Positions 4,480 to 51,307 of a stretch of DNA of 64,000 nt are shown piece by piece (within the stretch, counting starts at the first letter, position 1; each line of letters begins with the position of its first letter). The notes under the pieces are model-generated. The model made no database searches and was not told the DNA's origin. It worked only from the letters and a program-made list of their open reading frames with translations. The stretch spans positions 32,001 to 96,000 of the forward strand of contig JBAXKC010000001.1 of NCBI GenBank assembly GCA_037137535.1, given 5' to 3'. Source of the stretch: a bacterium. GTDB lineage: Bacteria > Cyanobacteriota > Vampirovibrionia > Gastranaerophilales > JBAXKC01. The translations under genes were made by a program, and so were the position numbers.

Positions 4480-7128
4480 TTAAAGCTCTTTTTTAATGCT
4501 TAATTTTAAGACTAAAAACTTATCCAGCTCAATCGCAATAATAACAGTTAAACCCATCATAACCGTCTGAAGCCAAGTAATAGAATCTAAGGCTTCCGTA
4601 TGAAAAATAAATTGAAGCGGTTTATAATGTAAAATAGCAATTTGAGCTGATAGTGAAAGAATAATACTTATAAATAAAAAAGAATTTGAAAAAGGATTTA
4701 TTTTAAAAATGGATTTCTCAAATGAACGAGAATTAAGTACATTAAAAAACTGAAAAAATACTATTGTATTTAACGCTGTACTTCTTGCATAGTTAATATC
4801 GGCACCATTACTTAACTTATAATGAAATAGATACAAAGAACCAACCGTCATAACTATTCCGACTATTATCAATCTTCTTAACATCATAGAATTGATTAAT
4901 TTTTCATTAGGGTTTATCGGAGGTTTTCTGGTGATGTTCTCTTCTCCCGGTTCATAGGCAAGAGCTACGTCTTGAAGAGCATTTGTAACAAGATTTACCC
5001 ATAAAACCTGTATAGCAAGCATAGGCAAAGGCCATTTTAACAGTAATGCAGTAATAACAATTAATGCAAAAGCTAAACCTGTACTAATCAAGAAAAATAT
5101 TACCTTTTGAATGTTATCAAAAATAATTCGCCCAATTTTTACTGCTTCAAATATCGTTTCATAATTATCATCTTTAAGAATAATGTCAGATGCCTCTTTT
5201 GCTGTGTCTGTTCCTGTTTTTCCCATTGCTATGCCGATAGACGCTTTTTTTAACGCAGGAGCATCATTAACACCGTCACCCGTGACTGCAACAATATGTC
5301 CTAAATTTTTAAGAGTTTCTACAATTTTATATTTTTGAGCAGGAGTTACTCTTGCAAAAACTTTAATTTTTTCAATATTCTGCTTTAAATCTTTTTCCTC
5401 CATTGTTTCAAACTCTTCGCCTGTTACAGCCAAATCACCTTCTTCAAAAATACCTATCTGTTTTGCAATAGCAATGGCTGTTTTTTTATGATCGCCTGTT
5501 ACCATCACCGTTGTAATCCCTGCCTGTTTTGTTAAGAGTATAGCCTCTTTTACCTCCTCTCGAGGAGGATCCATGATTGCTTGAAAACCTAAAAATTCGA
5601 GATTAGTTGTTGCTTCATTTTGAAAATTAAAATTTTGTGGAAAAGACGAAAAAATTTTCATACCAAAGGCCAAGACCCTAAATCCTGAATCTGTCATAGA
5701 AGTATAAACTTTTAACAATTCTTCATTATTTTTATTATTTGAAAATTCTAAAATCTGCTCAGGGCTGCCTTTTGCAAAAATATAGCCTTGATTATCTTTT
5801 TTATTCAATGTTGCCATATAATTTTTCTTTGAGCTGAAAGGAATTTCATCAATTTCTTTATACTGAAAAGTTATTTCCTCAATATCAATTCCAAATTTTG
5901 CCCCAGATACCAAAAGTGCGCCTTCTGTCGGGTCTCCATCAATTTTCCATTCACCATTTTCTTGAAAAAGAATGGAATTATTACAAATTACACCACATAA
6001 CAATAATTTATAAAGGTCCTCATCAATAGTTAATGTCAGATTATTCTGCAAAACTCCGCCATCAGGCTTATAACCACAACATTTAAACTCAAACTCTTTC
6101 AAGTTTGTATAAGCTTTTACAACGGTCATTCTATTTTCAGTAAGCGTTCCTGTTTTATCCGTACATATATAATCGCAACTGCCAAGAGTTTCAACAGCTA
6201 TGAGCTTTCTTACAATCGCATTTCTGTCAGCCATTCGTTTTATCCCGATAGTCATTGTAATAGTAACCACAATAAGCAAACCCTCGGGAATAATACCGAC
6301 TGTAACACTAAGAGTAAAAACAACCATTTCCATTATCGGATCGCCAAGAATAACCCCTAAAGCAAATACTAAAAAAGCTAAACTAATTGATAATAAGGCT
6401 ATTTTTTTGCTAAAATCATCCAATCTTTTCTGCAAAGGTGTTTTTTCTTTTTTTGTTTCTTTAACCTGAGAAGAAATTTTACCAAGTTCAGTATTGAGGC
6501 CTGTTGCTACAACAATAGCTTTTCCAGCCCCATGAGAAACAACAGTTCCCATAAATGCCATGTTTTGCTGGTCTGCTATTGAGATATTATATAAATTTAT
6601 CGGATTAGAATGTTTCAAAGAAGGTAACGACTCACCCGTAAAGGTAGATTCATTTATTTCAAGGTCTTTGACTTCAAAAATTCTAACATCCGCAGGAACT
6701 TTGTTTCCGGCAGTCAAAAGAACAATATCACCAATAACTATATCTTTAGAATCAATTTTTATTTCTTTGCTTTCCCTTATAACAGTTGCTTTTGGAGCTG
6801 CAAGCTCTTTAATGGAAAGCATAGCCTTTTCCGCTTTATACTCCTGTAAAAAACCAAACAATGCATTAACACCGACAATAGTCAAAATAACGCCCATATC
6901 AGTATAATGACCTATTAATAGGGTAATTAAAGCTGCTAGAAGAAGAATATAAATTAAAGGATCTGTAAATTGATGAAAAATCACTTTAAAAAGAAAAGCA
7001 TCTTTTTTCTCTTTAATAATATTCTGTCCATATTGTTGAAGTCTGCTTTTTGCTTCCAGCTTAGTTAATCCGCACTCTGTCGTATTAAGTTCTTTAAAAA
7101 TTTCATTAATCTGTTTTCTGTAAAACAT
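4480..7128 (-). CDS. P-type cation-transporting ATPase (P2A, Ca2+-type)
   Basis: TGES, IPEGL, DKTGTLT phosphorylation site, KGSPE, TGDGVNDAP, LWVNLVT. Confidence 0.93.
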   Translation of the reverse strand: MFYRKQINEIFKELNTTECGLTKLEAKSRLQQYGQNIIKEKKDAFLFKVIFHQFTDPLIYILLLAALITLLIGHYTDMGVILTIVGVNALFGFLQEYKAEKAMLSIKELAAPKATVIRESKEIKIDSKDIVIGDIVLLTAGNKVPADVRIFEVKDLEINESTFTGESLPSLKHSNPINLYNISIADQQNMAFMGTVVSHGAGKAIVVATGLNTELGKISSQVKETKKEKTPLQKRLDDFSKKIALLSISLAFLVFALGVILGDPIMEMVVFTLSVTVGIIPEGLLIVVTITMTIGIKRMADRNAIVRKLIAVETLGSCDYICTDKTGTLTENRMTVVKAYTNLKEFEFKCCGYKPDGGVLQNNLTLTIDEDLYKLLLCGVICNNSILFQENGEWKIDGDPTEGALLVSGAKFGIDIEEITFQYKEIDEIPFSSKKNYMATLNKKDNQGYIFAKGSPEQILEFSNNKNNEELLKVYTSMTDSGFRVLAFGMKIFSSFPQNFNFQNEATTNLEFLGFQAIMDPPREEVKEAILLTKQAGITTVMVTGDHKKTAIAIAKQIGIFEEGDLAVTGEEFETMEEKDLKQNIEKIKVFARVTPAQKYKIVETLKNLGHIVAVTGDGVNDAPALKKASIGIAMGKTGTDTAKEASDIILKDDNYETIFEAVKIGRIIFDNIQKVIFFLISTGLAFALIVITALLLKWPLPMLAIQVLWVNLVTNALQDVALAYEPGEENITRKPPINPNEKLINSMMLRRLIIVGIVMTVGSLYLFHYKLSNGADINYARSTALNTIVFFQFFNVLNSRSFEKSIFKINPFSNSFLFISIILSLSAQIAILHYKPLQFIFHTEALDSITWLQTVMMGLTVIIAIELDKFLVLKLSIKKEL

Positions 7129-7565
7129 TTAGATCTCCTGATATTTTCAAGAACTTAACAAGAAAACCAATATAGTGCTATTGTCATAATTTAATTCACT
7201 TTATCAAAGAAATCATTATGCTTTTATATAATTACTTCGGGTATATTTGCTAAAGATTAAAAAATTAAAAATCTTAATTTATGAAAACAAAAGCCATTTT
7301 AGAAGGATTATAAATGTTAACAATAATATGAAAAAGGGTCTTTATCCTTAATCGCCAAAAGCGTTGATACAAGTAAAAATATAGGGACTTGACACTTTAG
7401 CATTGTTTTTTAATTGTAAAGAAAATATAAATTTTAATTGTTTTTTGATTAATATAGCAAATTTTTTCTTTGACTTGTTTTATTATTATCACAACACCTA
7501 TGCGAATGTTTTTTAAAATAAATGAAAGTTAAGGCAAAAAATAAACCGGGAGGTTAGGTAACTAA

Positions 7566-8798
7566 ATGTCTAATGACACTACAACAACTCAAGAACAGAT
7601 TAACTCAATAGATTCCCTGTCAAATAAAAAGAACGTAGCAAAAGCAGACCTTCGAAGAATTGAAATAAGCGAAATTACAGGAAAATTACCAGACCTTAAA
7701 AATTCAAGAGCAACAAAAGATAACTTAATAGCCGGTTGGCTCACAAATTGGATTGATTCATCTTTATCATCAGGCAAAGTTGATAAAAATGACTTACTGC
7801 CAAAGAAAAACGTTCTTGCTAAATTTTTCGGAGTTAGCATCGGAACTGTTCAAACCGCTATAAGACTTATTGAAGACAAAGGTTATGTTGAGTCTAAACA
7901 AAGAATCGGCACTTTTATCAAAGACAGAGAAGAAAATGACTCAGAACTAAGAAAACAGACCTCAAAAAGAGATCAGGCTATTTTAGCAATTAAGCATTTA
8001 ATCACCAAAAATGAATATAAAATTGATGAACCGCTTCCTTCTTCAAGAGAACTTGCAAAAATTATCGGAAGCGCTCCTAATACTACCAGGCTTGCGCTGG
8101 AATTCCTTTCCGGAACAGGTGTTATTGAAGCAATGGGATGTCGTGGAAACAAAGCAAACTGGATTTTAAAACAAATTCCCGATATGCAAAACGAATCATC
8201 TGATATTGCTCTTGAAACCGATACACTTGTAGATCAAGTTGAAAGAGATTTAAAAGAATTTATTGATGCAAGATGCCAAGTAAATGACAAACTTCCTTCA
8301 CACTTTGAACTTGCTGATACTTTAAAAGTAAGTATTAAAACAGTTCATGATGCAATGAAAAGGCTTGTAGAGCAAGGTATTTTACGTTCAAAAAGAGGCA
8401 GATACGGCACATATATTATGAGAAAGCCTTTCTCTTCACCACTAGAACAAAGACCTGAACACTCAATGTTTGCTTCTGCTGAAGATGTAAGTTTCTATAA
8501 CTATGAAAAAATAGAAAAGCATTTAAGACAATTCATCAGCACTAATTACAAAGTAGGCGACAAACTTCCGTCAATGGGAACACTTGCGACAGAATTAAAA
8601 GTCAGCAGCAACACCATCAGAAAAGCACTTCAACAACTTGCTGATGATAAAATAGTAAGTTTTTCAAGAGGAAGATACGGAGGAACTTTTGTTGAAAAAT
8701 TACCTGAAGAAAATACAGAAAAGAAATCTGAAATCGGTTCCTTCACATGGTTATCAGTAAACAGCCCGAGTAGAGTTTATCAAACAAACGAATCATAA
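7566..8798 (+). CDS. DNA-binding protein with four tandem GntR-type winged-helix domains
   Basis: Four 'LPS..ELA...VS..T...A...L...G....R.GT' units. Confidence 0.8.
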   Translation: MSNDTTTTQEQINSIDSLSNKKNVAKADLRRIEISEITGKLPDLKNSRATKDNLIAGWLTNWIDSSLSSGKVDKNDLLPKKNVLAKFFGVSIGTVQTAIRLIEDKGYVESKQRIGTFIKDREENDSELRKQTSKRDQAILAIKHLITKNEYKIDEPLPSSRELAKIIGSAPNTTRLALEFLSGTGVIEAMGCRGNKANWILKQIPDMQNESSDIALETDTLVDQVERDLKEFIDARCQVNDKLPSHFELADTLKVSIKTVHDAMKRLVEQGILRSKRGRYGTYIMRKPFSSPLEQRPEHSMFASAEDVSFYNYEKIEKHLRQFISTNYKVGDKLPSMGTLATELKVSSNTIRKALQQLADDKIVSFSRGRYGGTFVEKLPEENTEKKSEIGSFTWLSVNSPSRVYQTNES

Positions 8799-8817
8799 GT
8801 AAAAAATAACTAAAAGC

Positions 8818-8860
8818 AAAAGAGAAGAATGTTAATTAATAACGTTCTTCTCTTTTTTTT
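8818..8860 (+). terminator. Intrinsic terminator after the 4xGntR gene
   Basis: aaaagagaagaatgtt...aacgttcttctctttttttt. Confidence 0.75.
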
Positions 8861-8935
8861 GGCAATTTCTCGGCTTTATTTGTTTTTATATAAATAAGAA
8901 CGATTTTGCTTTTGACATGACGAAAAGGGGATACC

Positions 8936-9133
8936 ATGTTTAGCCCACAATTTATGAACTACATTATTGATCCGACAAGCGAAGAAGAAAACTCCTCAAA
9001 AACACTTCACATCGAAAATGATGAAAAAATAACAAATGAAGTAGACCTGCTTAAAAATCAGGCAGGTGATTTTATTAATCAGGTTAGTCTAGCTTTAAAA
9101 GGAATAAAAAATAAACTTACAAATAAAGCATAA
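8936..9133 (+). CDS. Small hypothetical protein
   Basis: 65 aa ORF with an AAAGGGG RBS-like sequence; fills the intergenic gap. Confidence 0.55.
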   Translation: MFSPQFMNYIIDPTSEEENSSKTLHIENDEKITNEVDLLKNQAGDFINQVSLALKGIKNKLTNKA

Positions 9134-9137
9134 ACAA

Positions 9138-10322
9138 TTAAACTTGATTGGATTGCTCAAATAAAGGTGTTTCTTCGGAAAGACCCAATCGTTCAACAGG
9201 AATTATTAAATTAAAGGTTGAACCTTTTCCTAGTTCACTTTCAACCCAAATAATACCCTGCATTTCAGCAAGAATTTTTCTTGTGATAGCTAATCCTAAA
9301 CCTGTTCCACCGAACTTTTTGGAGATGGATTTATCAAGTTGTCTGTACTCATCAAAAATATTATTTAGTTCTTCCTCAGGAATACCCATACCAGTATCGG
9401 TTACTGAAACCATTAGATATGACTTATCAGTAAAGCTCTTTGGAACGTCTATTCCTTGATATCTGACAAAATGCAGATCAGGATGAGCAACTTTGATATG
9501 AACTGAACCACTTTCAGTAAATTTAACAGCATTTGAAACAAGATTAATTAAAACCTGTCTAACTAAGTTCTCATCAGAATAAATATTTCTTTTGACTATA
9601 TCGGATAAATCCATTGAAAAATCAAGTTTTTTCTCTTTAATAAACGGATTTACAGCCTCAACAACAGAGTTTGTAAGTTGAACTATGTCAAAATTTCTAT
9701 AATTAAACTCCATTTTACCTGCTTCAATCCTTGAAATATCAAGAATACTATTTAGCAACGCTAAAAGGCTATTTGCATTTCTGCTGATAATGTTTACATA
9801 TTTATTTTGTTTTTCATTCAATTCTCCGCCGAGTCCGTCAACTAATGCTTGAGAAAATCCGATTACGGAGTGCATTGGTGTTCTTAACTCATGAGAAAAA
9901 TTTGCGATAAAAGTACTTTTATTTTTACTGATATTTTGCATATTTTCATATTCAAGTAAAAGTTTTTCAATTATTTTTTGATTTTTAGTCACATCTCTAA
10001 CTGAAATAATTACTTCATCTTTGTTTTCAACGTTAGAACAAGTGATCTCAACAAATAATTCCTTATCACCTTTAGTTCTTGCGGTTAATACCGTACTTTT
10101 ATTTTCAACAAGATTTTGATAAATTTTATCAATTTCTTCATTAAAAATCACACCGATATTTTTACCGAGAACATCTCTTGATGCAAAATCAAACATTTTT
10201 TGGGATCTTTTATTCCAAAAAACAATATTTTTCTTATAATCAATAATAATTACAGCATCCGGGTGCTGATTATAAGTTTCGTAATTATAAAATCCTTTAA
10301 AAAGAGATTTAATATTCATCAT
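9138..10322 (-). CDS. Cytoplasmic PAS-domain sensor histidine kinase
   Basis: PAS (PDAVIIID...WN), H-box SHELRTP, N-box NLVSNAVKFT, G-boxes DTGMGI and GGTGLGL. Confidence 0.92.
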   Translation of the reverse strand: MMNIKSLFKGFYNYETYNQHPDAVIIIDYKKNIVFWNKRSQKMFDFASRDVLGKNIGVIFNEEIDKIYQNLVENKSTVLTARTKGDKELFVEITCSNVENKDEVIISVRDVTKNQKIIEKLLLEYENMQNISKNKSTFIANFSHELRTPMHSVIGFSQALVDGLGGELNEKQNKYVNIISRNANSLLALLNSILDISRIEAGKMEFNYRNFDIVQLTNSVVEAVNPFIKEKKLDFSMDLSDIVKRNIYSDENLVRQVLINLVSNAVKFTESGSVHIKVAHPDLHFVRYQGIDVPKSFTDKSYLMVSVTDTGMGIPEEELNNIFDEYRQLDKSISKKFGGTGLGLAITRKILAEMQGIIWVESELGKGSTFNLIIPVERLGLSEETPLFEQSNQV

Positions 10323-10517
10323 TTACCTTAGAATAATCCTAAATTATGTAAATATTATCATGAAATTTTACAAAATTAAACAATTGTAAAAAATACTAAT
10401 ACATTGGTATTAGTGGCGCAATCAATCGTATAGTTTTCAAGTTAATTGATTATACGATTTGTTTAATAATTTTAAATCATTGTTTTAGTGTAGATTATTT
10501 TTTAATCTCTAAAACAA

Positions 10518-11336
10518 TTATAAATCTTTAATCAGATTATAAACCTGACTTTTAGATATATTCTCAAGAATAGAAATTATTTTACTTATATCTTTAGTAG
10601 AAAAACCTTCTTTTTTAAGTTTTTTTGCCTTTTCTAATATTATTGAATCTTCAAGAGAAAATAATTCATCCTTCCCTTCAATAATAAGAACTATTTCCCC
10701 TTTTACGCCTTTGCTCTCGTAATAATCAATAAGATTTTGAGCCGTATCCTTACGCACTTCCTCATAGAACTTAGTAAGTTCCCTTGCCACAACAACGTTA
10801 GGATTATCAAGGATTTGATCTATTGTTTTTAAAGTAGCTATAAGCCTTGAAGGAGCTTCATAAATAATCAGATTTGTCGTTTTATATTTTAAAAGGAGTT
10901 CTTCAATTTCTTTATCTTTTTTAGGTAAAAAACCTGCGAACATAAAACCGTTTTTCTCAAGATAAACAGAGGACACAGCAACTGTTAAGGCACATGCCCC
11001 CGCTAACGAAACAATATTAATATTTTCCTCTGCCAGTACTTTTAAAAGCTCCGACCCCGGATCACTGATAACAGGAGTTCCTGCATCTGAAACAAGAGCG
11101 ATATTTTTTCCCTCTTTAAGTAGCTCTGAAAGATATGAAGATTTTTGTTTTTCGCTGAATTTATGATAACTAATTGTTTTCGTATTAATTTCATAATGAT
11201 TAAGCAGCTTTTGAGTAACTCTAGTATCCTCACAAGCGATAATATCAACTTCTTTTAATATTCTTAACGCTCTTAAAGTTATATCCTCTAAGTTGCCGAT
11301 AGGAGTGGGGCATATATACAACGTACCATTAGACAT
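10518..11336 (-). CDS. rsmI: 16S rRNA C1402 2'-O-methyltransferase
   Basis: LYICPTPIGNLEDIT, CEDTR, SDAGTP.ISDPG, RELTK. Confidence 0.95.
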   Translation of the reverse strand: MSNGTLYICPTPIGNLEDITLRALRILKEVDIIACEDTRVTQKLLNHYEINTKTISYHKFSEKQKSSYLSELLKEGKNIALVSDAGTPVISDPGSELLKVLAEENINIVSLAGACALTVAVSSVYLEKNGFMFAGFLPKKDKEIEELLLKYKTTNLIIYEAPSRLIATLKTIDQILDNPNVVVARELTKFYEEVRKDTAQNLIDYYESKGVKGEIVLIIEGKDELFSLEDSIILEKAKKLKKEGFSTKDISKIISILENISKSQVYNLIKDL

Positions 11337-11337
11337 A

Positions 11338-12096
11338 CTATTTAATAAACTCTCTTACAACATAACTTGACATCATATAACCTGCAACAGGCGGAACAAA
11401 CGGTGAACTTCCAGGAGTGAATTTTTTCAAATCAATCTGCTCTCCATGCCCGTTTTTAAAATGCTGCACATTTTGACGTTTTTCTACTTTTATTGGTTTT
11501 TCTTCACTTACAACTACAGGTAAACCTTCTGTTATTCCAAGCTTTCTAAGTTTATAAATCATACTTGCACTGAAAGGACAGCTTTTTTTAGCTTTAACCT
11601 CACTAATATCAGAAATATAAAGTTTTTCTGGACAAAGTCTATTCCCTGCACCCATAGAGCTAATTACAGGAACATTATTATCAAAACAACTTTTTATAAG
11701 GTCAACTTTGAATTTCATACTATCAATAGCATCAATTACAAAATCAACTTTTTCATTAAAAATATCTTCATTTAAAGTTAACGTATAAAAATCTTTAAAT
11801 GTTTTTATTTCAATATCTGGATTAATATCTTTTATTCTTTGGGCCATAAGTTCAGTTTTAGGCAGCTCAACAGTAGATTGAAGTGCAATAAGCTGGCGAT
11901 TAATATTAGAAAGGGCAACTTTATCAAAATCTATAAGTGAAAGTTTTCCCACTCCACTTCTGGCAAGAGCTTCAGCAGCAAAAGAACCGACTCCGCCAAT
12001 ACCAAAGACAGCCACATGTTTTTCAAACAGTTTTCTTTGAGCCTCTTCGCCCCAAAGAAGAATATTTCTTTCATACAACTCTATACTGTTCTGCAT
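11338..12096 (-). CDS. tcdA: tRNA threonylcarbamoyladenosine dehydratase (ThiF family)
   Basis: GIGGVGS, SNINRQ, DAID, SSMGAG, FVPPVAG. Confidence 0.85.
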   Translation of the reverse strand: MQNSIELYERNILLWGEEAQRKLFEKHVAVFGIGGVGSFAAEALARSGVGKLSLIDFDKVALSNINRQLIALQSTVELPKTELMAQRIKDINPDIEIKTFKDFYTLTLNEDIFNEKVDFVIDAIDSMKFKVDLIKSCFDNNVPVISSMGAGNRLCPEKLYISDISEVKAKKSCPFSASMIYKLRKLGITEGLPVVVSEEKPIKVEKRQNVQHFKNGHGEQIDLKKFTPGSSPFVPPVAGYMMSSYVVREFIK

Positions 12097-12098
12097 TT

Positions 12099-13130
12099 TT
12101 AATGATGTTTCCTAATTTCTGCAAGTTTTTTATACAAATCTTTTTCTTCTTGAGTAATATGCTCTGGAATAATTATTTTAATTTTTGCGATATGAGCGCC
12201 AAAACCGCCATCTTTTTTAGGTAAACCAAGATCTTTAAGCCTTAATGATTTTCCGGCTTGAGTATTTGGCGGAATAGTAACCTTTACAGGTCCATGTAGG
12301 GTTTTAACTTCTACATTTATCCCAAAAACAGCATCTTGCGGATAGATTTCTATATCTGAAGTTATATCACTGCCACTCATTTTAAAGTCTTTACTGTCTT
12401 TAAATTTTATTATGAGATATAAATCACCTTTTTGTCCATAAGAATCTGTTTTTCCCTCGCCTGAAAGACGAATTTTTGCTCCTTCTTTAACTCCTTTAGG
12501 GATTTTTACAAAAAGATTTTTTGAAATAGTTAAAAAACCTGTCCCCCCACAAGTATGACAATGAGTTCCTCTTGTTCCACAAGAAGTACATTTTTCCATA
12601 TATGAGAATTTTACATTTTTTTTATCATCATTCATCAAATCTTCAGGAATAAGAAAATAATCTTTGGTAATATCAAGATTTTCTTTTTCTTTAGGTGATT
12701 CCTGTGAAAAACCTCTTGATCTTCCTCCTCTAGAAGATCTTCCATGAGCTTGAGAACTCATAGCATCTCCAAAAATGGAACTAAAGAAATCAGAGAAACC
12801 ACCTTCACCGAAAGAACCGCCCATTCCTCCCATACCGCCAAAGCCACCGAATCCGCCTTGACCAAAGTTCATGTTTTCAAATCCAGGAGGAGGAGTAAAA
12901 TCCATTCCCTGACTCCAATTAGAGCCAAGACTATCATATCTTTGTCTTTTTTCCGAATCAGACAAGACTTCATAGGCTTCATTTATATCTTTAAACTTCT
13001 GTGAAGCCTCTGAGGCTTTATTAACATCGGGATGATATTTTCTGGCAAGTTTTCTGAAGGCTGCTTTAATTTCAGCTTCACCAGCTGTTTTTTGCACTCC
13101 TAAAACTTCATAATAATCTTTATATTTCAT
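12099..13130 (-). CDS. DnaJ/CbpA-like co-chaperone
   Basis: J domain with HPD, G/F-rich region, short Cys motif, DnaJ C-terminal domains. Confidence 0.9.
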
Positions 13131-13273
13131 AATTCATCACTTTTATTTATTTTATATAACATTTGCTATTACCATTTTAATACAGATAAACAGTAAGTCT
13201 TTATAACTTAAAGATTTTTTTATATTTTTGAGATAATGTTAATAATATCGGCTATATCGGGAAAGGCAAAACA

Positions 13274-14038
13274 ATGGAAGATAAAATTCAACAAGCATTA
13301 GAACACATTGAAAAAGAAGAATATAATAGTGCAATTAATATTTTTGAAGAATTAATAGAAGATGATGCTGAAAATGCATATTTATACAATAATTTAGCAA
13401 CAATACACTACAAAAAAGGAAACTATGATAAAGCGATTGAACTATTTCAAAAGGCAATCGAATTAGATATAGACAATCAAGGAATTTATCAGAATTTAGC
13501 CGACGTTTACATGGCTGCTGAAAATATTGAATATGCACTTACAACGCTTCAGGAATGTGTTTCGATTAATCGCTCAAACCCTGGGCCGCTCTATCATTTA
13601 TCAAGAATATTAATACTTGACCACCAGCTTTACAGCGCTATTGAATATCTTGAAAAAGTCGTTGAATACGCACCAAACAATACTGATGCAAGATATGACC
13701 TTGCAAGAAGTTATTATGAAATTGGCGAATATGAAAACGCAATTGAGCAATATGAAACCATTCAAGTTGAATTACCTAAAAGCCCAGATATTTTATTCCA
13801 CTTAGGCTGTGCATATCTTGAACAATACAGATTAAATGATGCTATAAATATTTTTAACGAAGTTATTAAAGAAAGCCCTAATTATCTTCCTGTTTATAAA
13901 AAACTTGGAATGTTATATCTTACTCAAGATAATCATAAAGAAGCAAAAAAATATTTTGAAGCATATAAAAAGAATATTGTGGATGAAGAAGAAATTAAAT
14001 ATATTGAAAATATTATTTGCAAACTTAAAACTGATTAA
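13274..14038 (+). CDS. Tetratricopeptide repeat protein
   Basis: Multiple TPR motifs. Confidence 0.88.
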   Translation: MEDKIQQALEHIEKEEYNSAINIFEELIEDDAENAYLYNNLATIHYKKGNYDKAIELFQKAIELDIDNQGIYQNLADVYMAAENIEYALTTLQECVSINRSNPGPLYHLSRILILDHQLYSAIEYLEKVVEYAPNNTDARYDLARSYYEIGEYENAIEQYETIQVELPKSPDILFHLGCAYLEQYRLNDAINIFNEVIKESPNYLPVYKKLGMLYLTQDNHKEAKKYFEAYKKNIVDEEEIKYIENIICKLKTD

Positions 14039-14222
14039 ATTCTTTCATCACAAGAAAATTTCGATATCTAAATCTATCGACTTCCTTTTTATGTTTCAAA
14101 AAACAAAAAGGAACAAACACAAAAACATAGCAGTTATTGACCGTTACTGGCTTCTTTTCCTATGCTTTGAGTTTTTTACACAAAATACAAAATAATTTTC
14201 GAGAAAAGAAGCAAACCGCTCG
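14036..14222. repeat. Dispersed structured repeat, copy 1 (copy 2 at 48636-48810)
   Basis: Shares taaattctttcatcacaa...tcgat..atcgac..ccttttt..aaaagg..gaccg.tactggcttcttttc..gagaaaagaagcaaaccgctcg with copy 2. Confidence 0.85.
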
Positions 14223-14260
14223 AGTAGTGAACTTTTAAAATTTCTCATAATTAGATTAGT

Positions 14261-15037
14261 CTAACTATGAGGAATTTTAGTTTTATCTTTTAATTTTTCA
14301 ATCATTAATCTTGCAGGGGTATAAGCGTTGTTGATATCTAAACATTGACCAAACATATTTATTGCTTCATCAATAGAGCCTAAATTATAACTGTATTGAC
14401 CTAGAAAATAATATATTTCGGGGTCATTTGGTATGACTTTCTGACTTTTTAATAAAAAATCAGCGGCAATATTATTAAACCCGTTTGTCATTAAGGCTTT
14501 GCCGATAAATTTATAAGATTCGGGATTTACTTCAACGAGAATATCAGCACAATTTATAAGATTTTCGGCATAATCAACCCTGTCAGCCTGAATTAAATAA
14601 TTCAAATCAGACTCTAAATGATTACGAATTTGTAAAAGAGAAGGAACTTTAGGGTTGCTGATATTATCATCAATTAACATTAAAAAACTTTTTCCCCATT
14701 TTACAGGTTCTGAATCAGGTATTTTATCCCAAACTTTTTTAGCTACAAGAGGGCTACCCATCAAAATCTCACAAAACCCCGCCTGATAAAGTTCATTGAT
14801 CTGATAATAGATTTTTGCAGCTAAATCATAGTTTTTATTTTCAAAATGAGCAAACGCAAGAGTATTATAAAAAAATAAAGCATTATCCTTAAAAGATAAA
14901 GCATTATTCTTTAACTCAGGTTCAATTTCTTCAAGAAGATTTATTCCTCTTTCATACTTATTAAAAACAAGTATTTCTTTTCTAGCCTGAACTATAATAT
15001 TTTTAAAATGGAGAGATAACTCTTCAATTGGATGCAT
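14261..15037 (-). CDS. Tetratricopeptide repeat protein
   Basis: C-terminal TPRs (ESYKFIGKAL, EIYYFLGQY); directly downstream of csrA. Confidence 0.8.
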   Translation of the reverse strand: MHPIEELSLHFKNIIVQARKEILVFNKYERGINLLEEIEPELKNNALSFKDNALFFYNTLAFAHFENKNYDLAAKIYYQINELYQAGFCEILMGSPLVAKKVWDKIPDSEPVKWGKSFLMLIDDNISNPKVPSLLQIRNHLESDLNYLIQADRVDYAENLINCADILVEVNPESYKFIGKALMTNGFNNIAADFLLKSQKVIPNDPEIYYFLGQYSYNLGSIDEAINMFGQCLDINNAYTPARLMIEKLKDKTKIPHS

Positions 15038-15045
15038 AAACTTTG

Positions 15046-15339
15046 CTATTTTTCCGGATTATTTGATAATTTTTTAATCTTGTCTAAATAATTAGCATTA
15101 CTAAGATTTTGAGAATCAAACATATTTAAAACACTATTAAGGTCATTAACCTGAACATTTTTGCTTGCTTGTGCATTAGCTTTTTTAATTTCTTCGTAAA
15201 TTTCTTCACGATAAATAGTTACGTTTTTCGGAGCTTTTATCCCTATTTTTACGGACTCCCCCTTAGTTTCAAGAATAACAACTTCGATATTCTCATTGAT
15301 TATTAATTTTTGACCTAGTTTTCTTGTTAAAACTAACAT
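15046..15339 (-). CDS. csrA: Carbon storage regulator CsrA with C-terminal extension
   Basis: MLVLTRK, VKIGIKAPK, IYREEIY. Confidence 0.95.
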   Translation of the reverse strand: MLVLTRKLGQKLIINENIEVVILETKGESVKIGIKAPKNVTIYREEIYEEIKKANAQASKNVQVNDLNSVLNMFDSQNLSNANYLDKIKKLSNNPEK

Positions 15340-15371
15340 AATATATTAACCTTCATACTTTTCAAATAACA

Positions 15372-15815
15372 TTAAGATTGAGCTTTTGGTCCGGGAAATA
15401 GTCGTTGTTTAGCAGAAAAACTACTATTGATAAGAACCACTTGCATAGCCTTTTTGTTATCCATGTTGATAACAAGTGGGCCAAGAAGGTTAATCGTTGC
15501 GTTTTCAGGATGCCCTGACGGAATACAGACAATATTTAATGTTAATAAATTTTCAGCATTTGTTAATTCTAGTTTTTTTACTTCATCCTCGGGCATTATA
15601 AATTCATAATCAAGTCCAAAAAATCCTGCACAAGTTACCGGAAAAGCAATTTTCTCATCTTCTAAGGACTGAAGCCACTTAAAAGGAGATTCAGGCATAT
15701 GGTCAACAAGTGCAAATTTGTTTAAATGTTCATATCCAATGATAGGAGCAATGAATTCGAATGTAAGATTTTCGTTAATCTCAATTTCCCCAAATTTCTC
15801 AGTATTTATTTTCAT
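15372..15815 (-). CDS. fliW: Flagellar assembly factor FliW
   Basis: T.KFGEIEI, FKWLQS, ATINLLGPLVIN; adjacent to csrA. Confidence 0.93.
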   Translation of the reverse strand: MKINTEKFGEIEINENLTFEFIAPIIGYEHLNKFALVDHMPESPFKWLQSLEDEKIAFPVTCAGFFGLDYEFIMPEDEVKKLELTNAENLLTLNIVCIPSGHPENATINLLGPLVINMDNKKAMQVVLINSSFSAKQRLFPGPKAQS

Positions 15816-15978
15816 TTTCTATTCCAAACCGTAAAATCATTTAACTAAAAAAAGTGAATTACTGAGGTGCTACTGGATTTCAGCAATACTTCCACCTAAT
15901 GAAATTAAATCATAAATTTTAATGATAATCTATAAAATACTAAATTATTACTGTATTTGACTTAGTTTAACAAACTAA

Positions 15979-16854
15979 TTATTCAGTAATTTTAAGTTTA
16001 ATAAGAGTGTTTGTCCCTTGCTCTGTAACATAAAGGTTTCCACTATTATCAAGATATAAATAATATGGATTTTTAACAGAAGTAAGAACATTTTCAAATC
16101 TACCGTCATAAGTCATTTTTACGACCTGATTAGACTTATAATTTGCAATATAAATGTTATCCTGAGCATCAGCAACTAAACCGATAGGGCCATTAATAAA
16201 ATCAGGACGTTTAATTATAATCCTTTGACCTACAACAGGGATTTTAGTAATAGAATTTGAGACATAATTAGCAATATACAAATTGCCCTTACTGTCTTTG
16301 GTAATACCCGTAGGGCCGTTAAAACCCGGAATAACTGTTTTACTTGCAGAAAGTCTTTGAGCTTCAATTTTTTTTCTTAGTTCCGCAAGTTTAAGCTGTG
16401 ACTTAGAGATTAAAGATTTACTGTCTTTATATTCAATACTATCAGGATCAATTTTATTCAAGTGAGCTATTGCTTTGTTATAATTACCTTTTTTAAAGTA
16501 CAACTGCCCTAACTTCAATCTTATTTCATTATCTTCAGGTGTTTTTAATAATAAGGTCTCAAATAAGTCTATAGCCTTATCATTTTTATTAATATACTCA
16601 TATAAAGCCCCTGCATTATAGTAAGCATCAACAAAATCAGGATCAATTAAAATAGCCTTATTAAATTGATCTAACGCTTCCTTAAAATATCCTTTTTTAC
16701 TTAGTTCAACACCCTTATCATAAGTATTTATAGCCTCTTCTGTATAAGAATAAGCCGGAAGGTTATATAAAAAGAGGAAAGATAAAGTTAATATTACAAA
16801 AAGTTTATTTTTAAAATTCATGGAGAAATACCTCTGTTTGATGGCTATCGCCAA
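15979..16854 (-). CDS. Exported TPR + NHL-repeat protein
   Basis: Signal-like N-terminus, TPRs, then 'FNGPTGITKDSKGNLYIAN' NHL repeats; true start may be the ATG at 16821. Confidence 0.8.
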   Translation of the reverse strand: MAIAIKQRYFSMNFKNKLFVILTLSFLFLYNLPAYSYTEEAINTYDKGVELSKKGYFKEALDQFNKAILIDPDFVDAYYNAGALYEYINKNDKAIDLFETLLLKTPEDNEIRLKLGQLYFKKGNYNKAIAHLNKIDPDSIEYKDSKSLISKSQLKLAELRKKIEAQRLSASKTVIPGFNGPTGITKDSKGNLYIANYVSNSITKIPVVGQRIIIKRPDFINGPIGLVADAQDNIYIANYKSNQVVKMTYDGRFENVLTSVKNPYYLYLDNSGNLYVTEQGTNTLIKLKITE

Positions 16855-16887
16855 ATCTATATATTCTAATTATATACAAATAATGAT

Positions 16888-17457
16888 TTATTCTACAGCT
16901 CTAATTGGATTTCTAGTATTATTATCCGCAGGCACCACTGAATCAGCCATAATAATGAGTTGATATTGGTCTTGAAATTCATTTTTATCATGATAATAAC
17001 TATTCCCTTGAACATTAGGGCCTTTATTACCGTTTACATCTACAAGAACCTGACAATCTGCGCCACCACCGGCTGTTATACTTGAAGAAGTACCACATGG
17101 AGAAGCTGTATTTTTTGCAAAGAAATATGAAACGCCATCAGGAGTAGTAAATTTTCTTACATTGTCCCAGGACAGAACAGGAATAGATATTGCAAAATAT
17201 TTAGCAATATTAGAAGCACCGACATCACCAAATATTGAACATCCACTGCAAGTAGCAGGGCTAATATTTAATCGGCTAACATTAGTATCTAAAGCTTCAT
17301 TTAAAATTCTTACTGATTTTTTAAGTTTAAGCCTATATTGATTTGTATCAAAGCTAGAAACAAAAGAAGGTATAGTTAAAGCCATTACTATTCCAAGTAG
17401 CACCATTGAAACTAAAGCCTCAGAGAGAGTAAATGCTTTTCTTTCTTTTGATTTCAT
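16888..17457 (-). CDS. Type IV pilin-like protein (paralog 1)
   Basis: Prepilin-like KAFTLSE plus hydrophobic helix; DVNG motif and Cys pairs in the head. Confidence 0.85.
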   Translation of the reverse strand: MKSKERKAFTLSEALVSMVLLGIVMALTIPSFVSSFDTNQYRLKLKKSVRILNEALDTNVSRLNISPATCSGCSIFGDVGASNIAKYFAISIPVLSWDNVRKFTTPDGVSYFFAKNTASPCGTSSSITAGGGADCQVLVDVNGNKGPNVQGNSYYHDKNEFQDQYQLIIMADSVVPADNNTRNPIRAVE

Positions 17458-17554
17458 AGCTAAATCCCTCTATTATTTACAATTCAATTATAAGTGATTT
17501 TTAGATTAAAATCTATTAATTTAAACTAATCTTAATTATATACAAATAAATCAT

Positions 17555-18142
17555 TTATTCTAAAGCGGCAACCGCATTATTATTAAACTCCGAAGAAGGT
17601 TCTAACGAGTCACTTGTTAGCACAAATTGATAAATATCGCTAAATTGCTTATTCCCATCACCGTATTTTATAATACCATTTATAGGATCGGACGGAGGAG
17701 CACTTCCATTCACATCAATAGCTACATTACAATCAGAATCAACATAGGATTTAGTGGTTGATGTTCCACAGGCGGAGCTTGTATTTTTATTAAATACATA
17801 AATAGTTCCATCAGTCGTTACAAGATAAGGACATGAGGCTGATGAGATACCTCTGGAAATAACCGGTAAAGATTTTGCCATAAAATCAGCAAGCGCCATC
17901 TTCCCCGTAGCATAGGAAACACTACAACCCGGACAAGTTGCAGCATTTTGACCATATCTACTTATGTTATAATCCAAAGCCTCATTAAAGACCCTTACTG
18001 ATTTTTTAAGTTTAAGCCTATATTGATTTGTATCAAAGCTAGAAATAAAAGAAGGTATAGTTAAAGCCATTACTATTCCAAGTAACACCATTGAAACTAA
18101 AGTCTCAGAGAGAGTAAATGCTTTTCTTTCTTTAGATGTCAT
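17555..18142 (-). CDS. Type IV pilin-like protein (paralog 2)
   Basis: KAFTLSE leader; N-terminal ~57 aa nearly identical to paralog 1. Confidence 0.85.
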   Translation of the reverse strand: MTSKERKAFTLSETLVSMVLLGIVMALTIPSFISSFDTNQYRLKLKKSVRVFNEALDYNISRYGQNAATCPGCSVSYATGKMALADFMAKSLPVISRGISSASCPYLVTTDGTIYVFNKNTSSACGTSTTKSYVDSDCNVAIDVNGSAPPSDPINGIIKYGDGNKQFSDIYQFVLTSDSLEPSSEFNNNAVAALE

Positions 18143-18222
18143 AGCAAATCCATTTATTATTTATAATTCAATTATAAGTGATTATAGATTAAAATCTATT
18201 AATAAAAAGAAAGAATACAAAG

Positions 18223-32986: not shown

Positions 32987-33092
32987 TTAGCCGATTAAGC
33001 CTCTTCTCTCAAGAAAATTTCTATGTCTAAAACCATCGGCTAACTTTTTGACAATTGCCTTAATATAAAAATAATTTTACCAATTAGAAAAC

Positions 33093-34379
33093 TTACTTTT
33101 CTCTAGTTGCAGCAGGCTTGTGTTTCTCAAGAATACCTGTAAACAGATTTACTTTATCCGTTAAATATTTATCAATTACAGTTTTAAACTTAGGATTAGC
33201 TTCGATAGCTTTTAATTCGCTGTCAAACTCAGCTTCCATTTCCTTTTTCTCTTGCGGAGGCAAGAAAGCCGCATTTATACCGTTTTTAACAAGAGTTTTA
33301 ATATCTTGCAATGTAGTAATTATTCCATGTTCATATAACCTTCTGAACTCTTCTGAGAGGTCTGTATTAAACATGGATTGATCATCTGTACAGACTGCAA
33401 CTTTTATATTTTCGTCAATCATTCTTTTTAAATGTTTTTGATCCCATGTTGTAACACCTGTTGCAACATTTGAAGAAGGACAATTTTCAATAACAATATT
33501 TTTATCTTTTACCTGTTGTATAAGGTTTTTATCATTAAATAAAGCCAGTCCGTGGCCTATTCTTTCCGTTCCGTAAGCAATTGCTCTCATCATAGACTGA
33601 GTAGGGGTTAAATCTTCGGAGTGAGGAGTTTCCCCTGCATGAATAGTCAAATGCAGACCATTTTCTTTTGCATATTTTAAAGTTTCAGAGTGTTTATCAA
33701 TTGAGTGATTTAGTTCATCACCTGCAAGATCGAGAGCTACAACAGAAGAATTAGGCTCTTTTGACCACTTAACGGCAAGTTTTGCATCTTCCATAGACGT
33801 TTCAGGAGATTCATGCCTTTCAGTAGTAACCATTAATTTTACAACCTGATGAAATCCTGTTTTTTGAAGTTCATTTTTAGCCTGTTCAATACCATCGTTT
33901 ATTGCATGATACATTGTATCTTTAGCCTTTAGACGGGCATCAGTCTCTTTTAATTTTTCAGGATTTAATTCTTGAGACGAAATCTTTAATTCTATATATT
34001 TAACGTTTTCTTTTGCAGCATTCATACAAATAGAATAAGTAACAGCTTTTAATTCTTCGGCGGTTTTTACAGACTTTGACAAATTTGTATAAACATTAAC
34101 AAAATCTGTAAGATTATCATATTTTTCTTTGGTATAAGTCGCCTTAAAAACATCAGCTTCAGGCATACCTTTTATTTTTAGCTGATTTCTGACGAAATCA
34201 AGCGGATAAGATCCTGCTAAATGTGCATGTAATTCTGCTTTAGGAATAACGGAAAAAAATTCATTTAACTCTGCCGGCATCTCTTTTAATTTGTCAGTAT
34301 TATTTTTATTAATCGGCACATTAACCTCATTTATTTTACTTTTATCAATATTTATTGAATTGAATGCAGATAAAATCAT
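33093..34379 (-). CDS. Adenosine/adenine deaminase family protein with terminal extensions
   Basis: PKAELHAHL.GS, HAGE, RIGHG, CPSSN, TDD. Confidence 0.88.
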   Translation of the reverse strand: MILSAFNSINIDKSKINEVNVPINKNNTDKLKEMPAELNEFFSVIPKAELHAHLAGSYPLDFVRNQLKIKGMPEADVFKATYTKEKYDNLTDFVNVYTNLSKSVKTAEELKAVTYSICMNAAKENVKYIELKISSQELNPEKLKETDARLKAKDTMYHAINDGIEQAKNELQKTGFHQVVKLMVTTERHESPETSMEDAKLAVKWSKEPNSSVVALDLAGDELNHSIDKHSETLKYAKENGLHLTIHAGETPHSEDLTPTQSMMRAIAYGTERIGHGLALFNDKNLIQQVKDKNIVIENCPSSNVATGVTTWDQKHLKRMIDENIKVAVCTDDQSMFNTDLSEEFRRLYEHGIITTLQDIKTLVKNGINAAFLPPQEKKEMEAEFDSELKAIEANPKFKTVIDKYLTDKVNLFTGILEKHKPAATREK

Positions 34380-48541: not shown

Positions 48542-48635
48542 TAGTTGAGTCCTTTTAATCTTTTATATCTTGATTTTTCATAGATTTATTATAACACACC
48601 GATATGTAGCACTCTGAAGTTATTTTTATCTTTAC

Positions 48636-48810
48636 TAAATTCTTTCATCACAAAGAAATTTCGATGCCTGAAGCCATCGACTCCCTTTTTATTTTAAAAA
48701 AAATAAAAAGGAAACAAAAACTTTGCAGCTCTGACCGCTACTGGCTTCTTTTCTTACTCTTTGAGTTGTTTTGCACAAAATGATTTTTGAGAAAAGAAGC
48801 AAACCGCTCG
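48636..48810. repeat. Dispersed structured repeat, copy 2
   Basis: Homologous to 14036-14222, same orientation. Confidence 0.85.
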
Positions 48811-48851
48811 TTTGTGCCCGTTCTTAATTCAATCTTTTACAAAATGACCAA

Positions 48852-48888
48852 TAAAAAATAAGCCCACTCTATAATGAGTGAGCTTATT
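48852..48888 (-). terminator. Intrinsic terminator after nrdJ
   Basis: aataagcccactc-tataat-gagtgagcttatt, with a T-run on the minus strand. Confidence 0.7.
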
Positions 48889-48925: not shown

Positions 48926-51307
48926 CTAACTACACTTAGAATAACCACAATTCTTGCAAAGAACGCAACCTTCACCGAATTCAAGCATTTGTCCGCATTC
49001 TGGGCATTCAGGACAATGTCCCGCATCTGCTTTAGAAGAATTAAGCGGAGTACAAGCTTTTTCAGCTCCTGTAATACATTCTTGAGTGTTAATTCCAAGC
49101 CCGTTGAGTTTTTCAAGGTTTCTTTCAAGAACTTTTGCAATAGCATCAGAACAAGAAAGAACCATTCCACCTTTAGCCATAGCAGGGGACGGACATCTGA
49201 TACCTGTCAGCTGGCTGATTATCGCATCAACTTCAACACCGGCTCTTAATGATAATGAAATCATTCTTCCTGTCGCTTCCGCCTGACTTGTCGCACAACC
49301 GCCCGATTTACCCATTCTTGCAAAGACTTCGCAAAGCCCTTCATCATCAACATTAATTGTTACATATAAAGGACCGCAACCTGTTTGAATCTTATCGGTG
49401 ACTCCATAAGTAACAACAGGTCTTTCTCTAGGAGTTACAACACCATGAGAAGTTGTTGCAGAAGCCTCAGCGGTTCTTGTGTCAGTAGCTTTAATAATCA
49501 TAGCCTGACCAAAACGGCTGTTGTTTCTATAAACGGTTGTTCCTTTTAATTTCGAATTAAAAGCAAGCATGTAAGTTTCTGCAATTTGCTCTCTTGTCGC
49601 ATCTTCGCAGAAGTTTACTGTTTTTGATACGGCATTATCAGTGTGAAGCTGGAAAGCAGCTTGCATTTTAACGTGCCAAGCAGGTGAAATATCGTGAGAA
49701 GTAACATAAACTTGCTGAACTTCCTCAGGAACTCCATCAACTCCAACAACTGAACCATGATATGAAATTTGCTTCATAACTTCTTCAGAATAAAAGTCTT
49801 TTTCTCTTGCAATTTTTTCAAGATACGGATTAACTTCTAAAAGCTCTGCTCCATCCATGATGTTTCTGATGAATGCAAGGGCGAAAATAGGCTCAACACC
49901 ACCTGAAGCGCCTGCAATCATGCTTATTGTTCCTGTCGGAGCAATACATGTTGTAGTTGCGTTTCTGATTCCGTATGTTTTAATATCTTCATCAAGATTT
50001 TTCCATTGCTCATCGGAAATAATACCTGCAGAAGTACCGTTATATTTTTCGTATAAGAAATTTTTATTATCATAGATAGAACCTTTGAAGTTTTTGAAAC
50101 TTCCTCTTTGTTTTGCAAGTTCAATTGATTCGACCTTAGAGTGATAATCAATAAATTCCATCATTTGAGCCGCTAACTTAACACCTTCTTCTGAATTATA
50201 AGGAATATTCATAATCATAAGAAGATCAGCCCATCCCATTACTCCAAGACCGATTTTTCTGTTAGCATCTACCATTTCGGTAATTTCAGGAAGCGGATAA
50301 TTATTAACAACAATTACGTTATCAAGGAAGTGTGAAGCAAGCTTAGTTGTATAAGCAAGTTTGTCCCAATCAATTTCAAGCTGTCCGTTTTCATTGGATT
50401 TGACCATCATACTAAGGTTAATTGAGCCAAGGTTACAAGCTTCATAAGGAAGTAAAGGAACTTCTCCGCAAGGATTTGTAGACTCAATGTCTCCAACATG
50501 AGGAGTAGGATTGTATCTGTTTACTTCGTCAATAAATACGATTCCCGGTTCGCCATTTCTCCAAGCATGATCGACAATAATGTCATATACTTCTTTAGCA
50601 CGCATTTTAGCAACAACTTTTTTAGTTTTAGGATGGAAAAGTTCATACTCTTGATCATTGATAACCGCTTTCATAAATACATCGGTTATTGCAACTGAAA
50701 TATTAAAGTTATTAAGTCTGTCACCATCAAATTTTGCATTGATAAAATCAAGAATATCTGGATGATCAACTCTTAAAATACCCATGTTAGCACCACGTCT
50801 TGTTCCACCTTGCTTAACAGCTTCAGTTGCAGCATTAAACACTTCCATAAAGGAAACAGGACCTGACGATACGCCCATAGTTGTTTTAACTATGTCGTTT
50901 TTAGGTCTTAATCTTGAGAAAGAAAAACCTGTACCGCCACCACTTTTGTGGATAATAGCAGTATTTTTAATGGTTTCAAAAATAGCTTCGAGTGAATCTT
51001 CGATTGGAAGAACAAAACACGCTGAAAGCTGTCCTAATTCTCTTCCTGCATTCATTAATGTAGGACTGTTTGGCATAAAGCAACGATTAGCCATAAATCT
51101 GTAAAATTCTTCAGCTAATGTTTGAACTTTTTCTTCATTTAAACCGAAAGACTTATCGCCGTCAGCAATGGTTGAAGCAACCCTCCAAAAAAGGTCTTCA
51201 GCTGTTTCAACAGGTTGACCGTTTTCATCTTTTCTAAGATAGCGTTTTGCTAAAACCGTTCTGGCATTTTCAGTTAGATCCATTTGTTCTTTTAAAAAAG
51301 GTGTCAC
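48926..51307 (-). CDS. nrdJ: Adenosylcobalamin-dependent (class II) ribonucleotide reductase with TSCPD-type domain and C-terminal zinc ribbon
   Basis: PNSPTLMNAG, QLSACFVL, TNPCGE, IAPTGTIS, SCSDAIA, CPECG...CKNCGYSKC. Confidence 0.93.
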   Translation of the reverse strand: MTPFLKEQMDLTENARTVLAKRYLRKDENGQPVETAEDLFWRVASTIADGDKSFGLNEEKVQTLAEEFYRFMANRCFMPNSPTLMNAGRELGQLSACFVLPIEDSLEAIFETIKNTAIIHKSGGGTGFSFSRLRPKNDIVKTTMGVSSGPVSFMEVFNAATEAVKQGGTRRGANMGILRVDHPDILDFINAKFDGDRLNNFNISVAITDVFMKAVINDQEYELFHPKTKKVVAKMRAKEVYDIIVDHAWRNGEPGIVFIDEVNRYNPTPHVGDIESTNPCGEVPLLPYEACNLGSINLSMMVKSNENGQLEIDWDKLAYTTKLASHFLDNVIVVNNYPLPEITEMVDANRKIGLGVMGWADLLMIMNIPYNSEEGVKLAAQMMEFIDYHSKVESIELAKQRGSFKNFKGSIYDNKNFLYEKYNGTSAGIISDEQWKNLDEDIKTYGIRNATTTCIAPTGTISMIAGASGGVEPIFALAFIRNIMDGAELLEVNPYLEKIAREKDFYSEEVMKQISYHGSVVGVDGVPEEVQQVYVTSHDISPAWHVKMQAAFQLHTDNAVSKTVNFCEDATREQIAETYMLAFNSKLKGTTVYRNNSRFGQAMIIKATDTRTAEASATTSHGVVTPRERPVVTYGVTDKIQTGCGPLYVTINVDDEGLCEVFARMGKSGGCATSQAEATGRMISLSLRAGVEVDAIISQLTGIRCPSPAMAKGGMVLSCSDAIAKVLERNLEKLNGLGINTQECITGAEKACTPLNSSKADAGHCPECPECGQMLEFGEGCVLCKNCGYSKCS

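Follow-up and report, generated by a model that had tools for sequence, protein, structure and literature searches.

A gene-less mosaic repeat with a predicted triplex hairpin in a Gastranaerophilales genome

The window analysed in this report, a 64,000-nucleotide stretch of contig JBAXKC010000001.1 (positions 32,001 to 96,000), belongs to a Gastranaerophilales assembly (GCA_037137535.1, here G000) of 2.95 Mb, 31% GC and 81 contigs. It holds two stretches, at 14036-14222 and 48636-48810, that the original prediction had singled out as copies of one structured repeat of ~180 bp. Both are present, aligning with each other over 188 nt at 80% identity (E 2e-42), and a third copy, partial and decayed, had been overlooked (Table 1). 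Copy 1, as had been claimed, overlaps the TAA stop of a TPR gene and is faced on its other side by a TPR-like gene; copy 2 is approached by a ribonucleotide reductase gene with a terminator of its own. A longer exaptation of copy 1 into the TPR gene was considered and rejected (387/2000 shuffles). The ends of the repeat, described as sharp, did not hold, since a full-length profile lengthens both copies and the taaattc end is typical of one subfamily only. Elsewhere in the window, two adjacent genes (16888-18183; 189 and 195 aa) share 193 nt at 90% identity and a further 38 nt upstream at 92%, and are in all probability a recent tandem duplication.

Table 1. Coordinates of the repeat copies, their parts and the neighbouring genes in the window
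Feature	Position	Strand	Remarks
TPR gene	13274-14038	+	stop codon and last 2-3 codons inside copy 1
Copy 1, mosaic repeat, TIR-type subfamily	14029-14263	-	right TIR lost, triplex module damaged; nhmmer full-length profile 14246-14029, E 5e-47; TIR relic out to 14263
Copy 1, hairpin PD (originally stem 1)	14061-14080	-	REP-like; tag overlaps 3' strand of PC basal stem
Copy 1, hairpin PC (originally stem 2)	14081-14114	-	duplex of predicted class IV triplex; 5-bp basal stem
Copy 1, pyrimidine third strand	14115-14125	-	decayed
Copy 1, small hairpin PB (originally stem 4)	14131-14149	-	GTAG-like REP
Copy 1, hairpin PA (originally stem 3)	14150-14212	-	likely degenerate second triplex-type hairpin, third strand cut to TTT; arms compared with other loci
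Copy 1, probable relic of left TATA-ended TIR	14250-14263	-	10/13; 41 nt from core, against 38-40 in several intact copies
TPR-like gene	14261-15037	-	reads into copy 1 from CGAG end
Third copy, partial and decayed	32998-33121	-	PD and right flank; full-length profile, E 1.3e-8
Copy 2	48616-48838	-	triplex broken; full-length profile, E 8e-55
Copy 2, hairpin PD	48661-48680	-	
Copy 2, hairpin PC	48681-48714	-	
Copy 2, hairpin PB	48726-48743	-	
Copy 2, hairpin PA	48744-48800	-	
Ribonucleotide reductase gene	48926-51307	-	reads towards copy 2 from CGAG end; own terminator 48857-48888

The first finding of this study is that the flagged stretches are damaged copies of a gene-less mosaic repeat with about 60 decayed copies. 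The suspicion that the repeat is multicopy was borne out, since the whole assembly holds not two copies only but 63 matches at E<=0.01, 51 of them at E<=1e-8, against a best E of 0.023 in a reversed-genome control; ten matches sit at contig ends. Mean identity among 32 near-full copies is 77.5%, the tree has a star shape (end branches with a median of 0.22; 2/24 inner branches starred), and the family looks decayed. Nor is it a known Rfam family: the window gave 0 matches at gathering score, and at E<=5 nothing credible fell on the repeat in six loci. At ~230-310 bp the repeat is longer than first flagged, and it is modular, the order on the minus strand being an optional TATA-ended terminal inverted repeat (TIR), a left flank, PA, PB, a T-rich third strand, PC, PD, a spacer, a CGTC-like hairpin and an optional second TIR. 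Full copies measure ~280-310 bp, and several shorter ones are internally deleted. The three hairpins claimed at the outset are all there (PD, PC and PA). In loci of Bacteroidales and Oscillospiraceae the PA arms recur together with a complete third strand; the basal stem of PC holds a hypervariable, covarying dinucleotide and is, in other copies, also the target of an IS110 element. A GTAG tag is present in the PB consensus, and the PD tags of 37 copies follow G-N-N-A-G and are mostly not GTAG (GTTAG 8, GGAAG 7, GGGAG 4, GTAAG 1). CGTC-like hairpins of this genome adjoin the repeat in 8/9 and 6/6 cases, the ninth being itself a deleted copy. Some copies are rearranged internally: one has the PA interior inverted (L011:4931-5089, contig C45), and two have the PA palindrome shortened and perfected, as from template switching (C50:8257 and C60:6214).

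The statement that there are no terminal inverted repeats has to be revised. Nine of the 63 matches, all of them dispersed copies, carry 13-bp TATA-ended TIRs at both ends (<=3 mismatches), one pair is perfect over 13 bp, and some internally deleted derivatives retain both ends; copy 1 keeps a 10/13 match (14251-14263) at the expected distance, which is not significant in a local-alignment shuffle (1035/2000). These ends could mean that the family is a MITE of the ERIC/Correia/RUP type whose TIRs are acted on by an IS630-like DDE transposase and whose hairpins only travel along, and TA termini are indeed typical of such elements as described in PMC2229807. We consider this improbable, however: copies with both TIRs are absent from the eight contigs in which the repeat is densest; no DDE_3 gene was found in G000, where collapsed elements could hide one; and none of the roughly ten clusters of multicopy IS termini that break the assembly at contig ends, their bodies absent, resembles the TIR of the repeat.

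Within this repeat family, real covariation is confined to the PC hairpin. At the base of PC, two positions show strong covariation over 37 copies (0/5000 shuffles each), and a whole-structure pair count agrees (0/500 shuffles). Stems PD and PA decay uncompensated and without strand bias (G-T versus A-C, 7:6 and 19:17), and the compensatory change in PD that had been put forward as support is a singleton found in 1/41 copies (shuffle p=0.10). Between lineages, PC and PD both covary (10/20 pairs, 0/500 shuffles) in a set of 15 rows partly chosen by motif pattern. The hint that the minus strand is the one that folds was right: it folds better than the plus strand on average (mean z -3.3 vs -2.7) and in 24/32 copies, and the triplex order exists on this strand only. 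RNAalifold returned almost no consensus fold for the repeat copies. The PC dinucleotide was also tried as a subfamily marker and rejected, requiring 17 changes on the poorly resolved tree against 11-17 when shuffled.

The second finding is that PC and the strand upstream of it are predicted to fold as an intrastrand triple helix on the minus strand. The T-rich strand is parallel-compatible with the purine arm of PC at 11/11 positions in 20/37 copies, and in 21/23 copies with intact flanks it has a G opposite the single T of that arm; because this is G and not A, the third strand is not a plain mirror copy. A G opposite T-A is the rule for pyrimidine triplexes of DNA. On the other side, a linker of a single base that has to span 5-7 bp would fit the A-form geometry of RNA more readily than that of DNA. 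Across 14 motif types, 117/126 triples and 19/20 non-A positions match, a result reached in 0/20,000 trials of each of two controls (letter permutation and strand swapping); this test allowed two registers, dropped 3/17 rows (G018, G176 and L085) and included kin. With a single fixed register the match falls to 7/21 non-A positions, so that the register is not constant across the motif; an earlier automatic register test with a faulty anchor gave 4/33. In relatives, third-strand C tracks purine-arm G, and run lengths change together. Viral contigs gave 15 loci for the mirror pattern and 0 each for a direct-repeat decoy and for 3-nt spacing; the basal stem, left unspecified in the pattern, is present in 10/16 matches. 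A 7-nt spacing gave 13 loci, six of them with a 6-of-7 stem, which rules out a constant 5-bp basal stem and puts its length at 5-7 bp. Metagenome and viral scans for the triplex form of G000 itself gave 0 matches. The order third strand, pyrimidine, purine, with an 11-nt stem, is that of PIT class IV (stems of 6-15 nt); Holder et al. give the order Hoogsteen-pyrimidine-purine as class IV, with 4% of their matches, in the part of PMC4666352 consulted. The triplex is damaged in both window copies, and in copy 2 it is broken because a short deletion takes half of the third strand and the linker. Evidence of this kind for a triple helix in nature, with covariation across three strands, is seldom seen.

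The hairpin is not peculiar to G000; distant bacteria and phages have it in their repeats as well. A PC-PD model, whose training included G016 and G023, found the module in multiple copies in G016 (15), G023 (6), G018 (4), G186 (25) and G201 (6) and matched 10/39 and 10/151 genomes; in the phylum sample all matching genomes belong to the order. Loci of Bacteroidales, Oscillospiraceae and Clostridiaceae with a third strand also came up with a pattern that was silent on that strand. Several relatives (Prevotella loci, L197, L199 and L204; by eye) add a pseudoknot stem from the upstream flank to the loop, which is absent from the G000 family. Other searches gave few or no matches: the full-core model R1 matches G000 only among 151 class genomes, the PC pattern was found in 1/301 order genomes, BLAST against 30 relatives gave one credible partial match, and metagenome and viral scans for the PD module gave 0; no relative of the same family as G000 was among the genomes searched. 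In two genomes (L175 and L176, in G192 and G172) the triplex hairpin abuts, by eye, the 3' end of apparent tRNA genes on the opposite strand. In Bacteroidales loci L029-L094 the triplex-pseudoknot motif marks a gap in conjugative elements where differing cargo genes sit, bordered by what we take to be a lysozyme-like tra gene and a PcfJ-like gene.

The triplex module could be a transcript-level element—a 3'-UTR stabiliser, a roadblock or a terminator—akin to those H-type pseudoknots that contain a triple helix in the major groove, a reading that we regard as unlikely, though the orientation of the dispersed copies speaks for it. Of these copies, 21/26 have a neighbouring gene that runs into them at the CGAG end, so the folded strand would be transcribed, against 14/25 at the other end and a background of 456/1186 for a gene reading into the side of a gap; the pseudoknot stem of the relatives and three terminator-like sites in copy 2 point the same way. 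However, the dense region shows no such bias (15/33), copy 1 has no terminator-like site, neither window copy has kept its triplex intact, and the G opposite T-A follows the DNA rule. RNA contigs from the same sample do not pile up on the repeat, with a summed depth of ~0.5 vs ~4 on the neighbouring gene, although contigs alone make this a weak test; DNA depth on the repeat is about tenfold that of its flanks. Promoter scans of the window copies gave chance-level results. The idea of a stand-alone multicopy ncRNA is not supported: most stems decay uncompensated, and the (weak) RNA contig data offer no pile-up in its favour.

IS110 targeting of repeats is well known. In this family, an IS110 element has inserted in PC at a CT core, with left junctions in C40, C45 and C80, right junctions in C45 and C47 and a probable third right junction seen in reads. 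Only the two ends of the element are assembled, its full gene and donor loop being absent from the assembly; its 42-aa C-terminus is 63% identical to P0001, an IS110 recombinase that carries PF01548 and PF02371 and passes NF033542. The left end, as read from its sequence, matches the left target directly and also holds the complement of the core plus a T-run, a guide layout as in IS621 where PMC11208160 describes it. The perfect 9-base left target occurs in three repeat copies, and 3/3 are occupied by the element; six intact copies are one base off, and two perfect sites outside the family are empty. By itself the 94-nt left end has no significant fold (z -0.16), and metagenome and viral scans for it gave 0. 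The guide spans the hypervariable dinucleotide, whose variability may point to escape from the IS110 guide. Like IS621, ISPpu9 and ISPpu10 as far as covered in PMC11208160, PMC12288879 and 10.64898/2026.03.19.712850, the element has a CT core and a long left end that carries guides for the left and right targets, and its insertions fall on a single site within a host repeat; unlike in those systems, the target is a triplex hairpin and the guide covers the hypervariable dinucleotide of the repeat. In one TIR copy (C37:5912-6127), the core is replaced by a 36-nt IS110 guide-loop piece with a different left guide.

Copies of the repeat are unevenly distributed. Eight contigs, chosen after the counts were seen, hold 36 copies in 100,844 bp, compared with 23 in the other 2.84 Mb, and a copy lies in 25/37 gaps of at least 200 bp in this dense region vs 24/556 elsewhere. 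C50 is joined to C60, and C57 to C47, through IS ends that lie inside copies, which suggests that the dense contigs may be one island. Such density, the filled gaps, these joints and the many dense-region genes with no Pfam family would suit a cassette island whose accessory genes are shuffled at the repeat by single-strand recombination, in the manner of a superintegron with no linked integrase. We nevertheless find this very improbable, as repeats and genes lie in mixed orientation, unlike an integron attC array; the four tyrosine recombinases look, from sequence and neighbours, like XerC, XerD and two phage-type integrases, with no integron integrase; and no repeat-to-repeat joint is among those listed for four runs against C45, in contigs, which drop rare variants. 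A C45 joint (4862-18085) that could have been a 13-kb excision was read instead as another IS701-like insertion beside an IS110 end. On the same contig, DNA contig depth over L011:5026-18099 is ~42 vs ~30 on the left part (run X1), which may be partial amplification or noise. Also on C45, between two copies in the same orientation, a divergent HTH_36/DnaD-like replication-type gene and a 186-aa unknown (L011:7656-9488) look like a plasmid-like cassette, and on C60 a chloramphenicol acetyltransferase-family gene (PF00302; L014:4740-5390) adjoins a dense-region copy. Contigs C19 and C74-C76 carry a phage-type integrase and Bacteroidetes-looking proteins on small contigs, giving the impression of possible bin contamination.

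What might have moved the repeat has to be judged from its hairpins and its relatives. Searches of the G000 assembly with PF01797, NF047646, PF13358, PF00078 and PF04986, the last of which matched no control genome either, found no Y1/RAYT, IS630, reverse transcriptase or Y2 gene; PF01541 found one UvrC-sized frame of 612 aa and no small GIY-YIG gene. These blanks weigh little, because multicopy elements have collapsed out of the assembly. No empty site was seen in sequencing runs X1-X5, of which X5, with its small share, did not count as evidence. The PC-PD model matched only 1/22 loci around Y1 or GIY-YIG genes of relatives, and no common neighbour gene of the motif emerged among 35 proteins. 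The RAYT genes (NF047646) of relatives G201 and G023 are flanked by PD-like hairpins, and PD of G186 shares its tag and stem with the hairpins flanking the G201 gene. Small GIY-YIG genes of relatives are flanked by inverted CGTC-like hairpins in 6/8 cases (by eye), an arrangement known from the Ssn system of PMC11893778; the published SRM pattern has two matches genome-wide in G000, 0 of them within 250 nt of a repeat copy. The tag G-N-N-A-G doubles as the 3' strand of the basal stem of PC, where its AG pairs with a CT, and according to PMC8266576 the tag of TnpA-REP chooses a CT cut site by pairing. REP dimers of Anabaena lie inside TATA-ended long palindromes in the part of PMC3733652 consulted.

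Given the pairing of the tag with CT in the PC basal stem, a single-strand origin of REP type is the best reading that we can offer, and the proposal of a non-autonomous REP/HUH-type element moved in trans survives in this form. We think it likely, by a modest measure, that this gene-less mosaic with its predicted triplex hairpin spread as single-stranded DNA through a REP-type nuclease acting in trans. The repeat would have been copied as single-stranded DNA by a nuclease supplied in trans, of the Y1/RAYT or possibly Ssn type and not found in this assembly; PB and PD would be RAYT-type recognition hairpins, the tag overlapping the PC basal stem would act as guide, the triplex would form on the minus strand, and spreading appears to have stopped. 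A bolder version, which we hold to be distinctly unlikely, takes the triplex hairpin to be what makes a whole class of single-strand mobile repeats work, a class so far undescribed and spread over several phyla, with the REP guide tag held fast in the triplex basal stem. In this lineage, the two tag-stem positions would have been recoded repeatedly on both strands to escape the RNA-guided IS110 element, the guide of which reads just these two positions, in an arms race of repeat against bridge RNA around a 100-kb accessory-gene island.

Comparison with known systems places the repeat closest to familiar ground in several respects. Like REP/BIME elements with a RAYT, as presented in the consulted parts of PMC8266576 and PMC3733652, it is intergenic, multicopy, built of a tag and a small hairpin, targeted by IS110 elements and a mosaic of GTAG-like and CGTC-like units; unlike them, its tags are variable (G-N-N-A-G) and form part of the paired stem of a triplex hairpin, its units stand in tandem on one strand and not as an inverted pair around a linker, and no cognate RAYT gene was found in the G000 assembly. 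The terminal GTCAT-tagged hairpins recall the NTS/SRM of Ssn (PMC11893778, in part), and such hairpins of relatives flank GIY-YIG genes of 88-134 aa, although no copy fits the SRM pattern and the search of G000 turned up no small GIY-YIG gene. With the ERIC/Correia/RUP elements of PMC2229807, as far as described there, one subfamily shares TA-ended TIRs, internal deletions and fusion to a gene end, whereas most copies have no TIRs, lengths reach ~310 bp and no cognate transposase was found. BoxC/PIT/TMECO repeats, in the sections of PMC4666352 consulted, are likewise dispersed with a double fold-back triplex and, in class IV, the same order; the present repeat is an A/T-rich pyrimidine motif, which sets it outside BoxC/TMECO, and differs by an extra basal duplex of 5-7 bp, by the G that stands opposite T-A and by the covariation of all three strands from one lineage to another. 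Extended TwoAYGGAY, in the available text of 10.64898/2026.09.22.753630, is also multicopy, multi-hairpin and intergenic, with a 3' pseudoknot and downstream REPs; that text uses the word "triplex" 0 times and describes no triple helix, and the present repeat, unlike TwoAYGGAY, has no RF01731 match. No published description of the triplex module was found in the literature searched, of which supplementary motif lists may hold one, and the repeat is a BIME-like mosaic whose class IV triplex module is apparently unpublished. This module lends itself to cheap oligonucleotide tests of whether the structure forms in DNA or RNA and of what moves it. Otherwise of a familiar kind, the family adds to these systems a triplex that has a short loop and lacks the pseudoknot stem, the G that faces T-A, a structural tie to REP tags and an IS110 element whose guide falls on the one variable spot.
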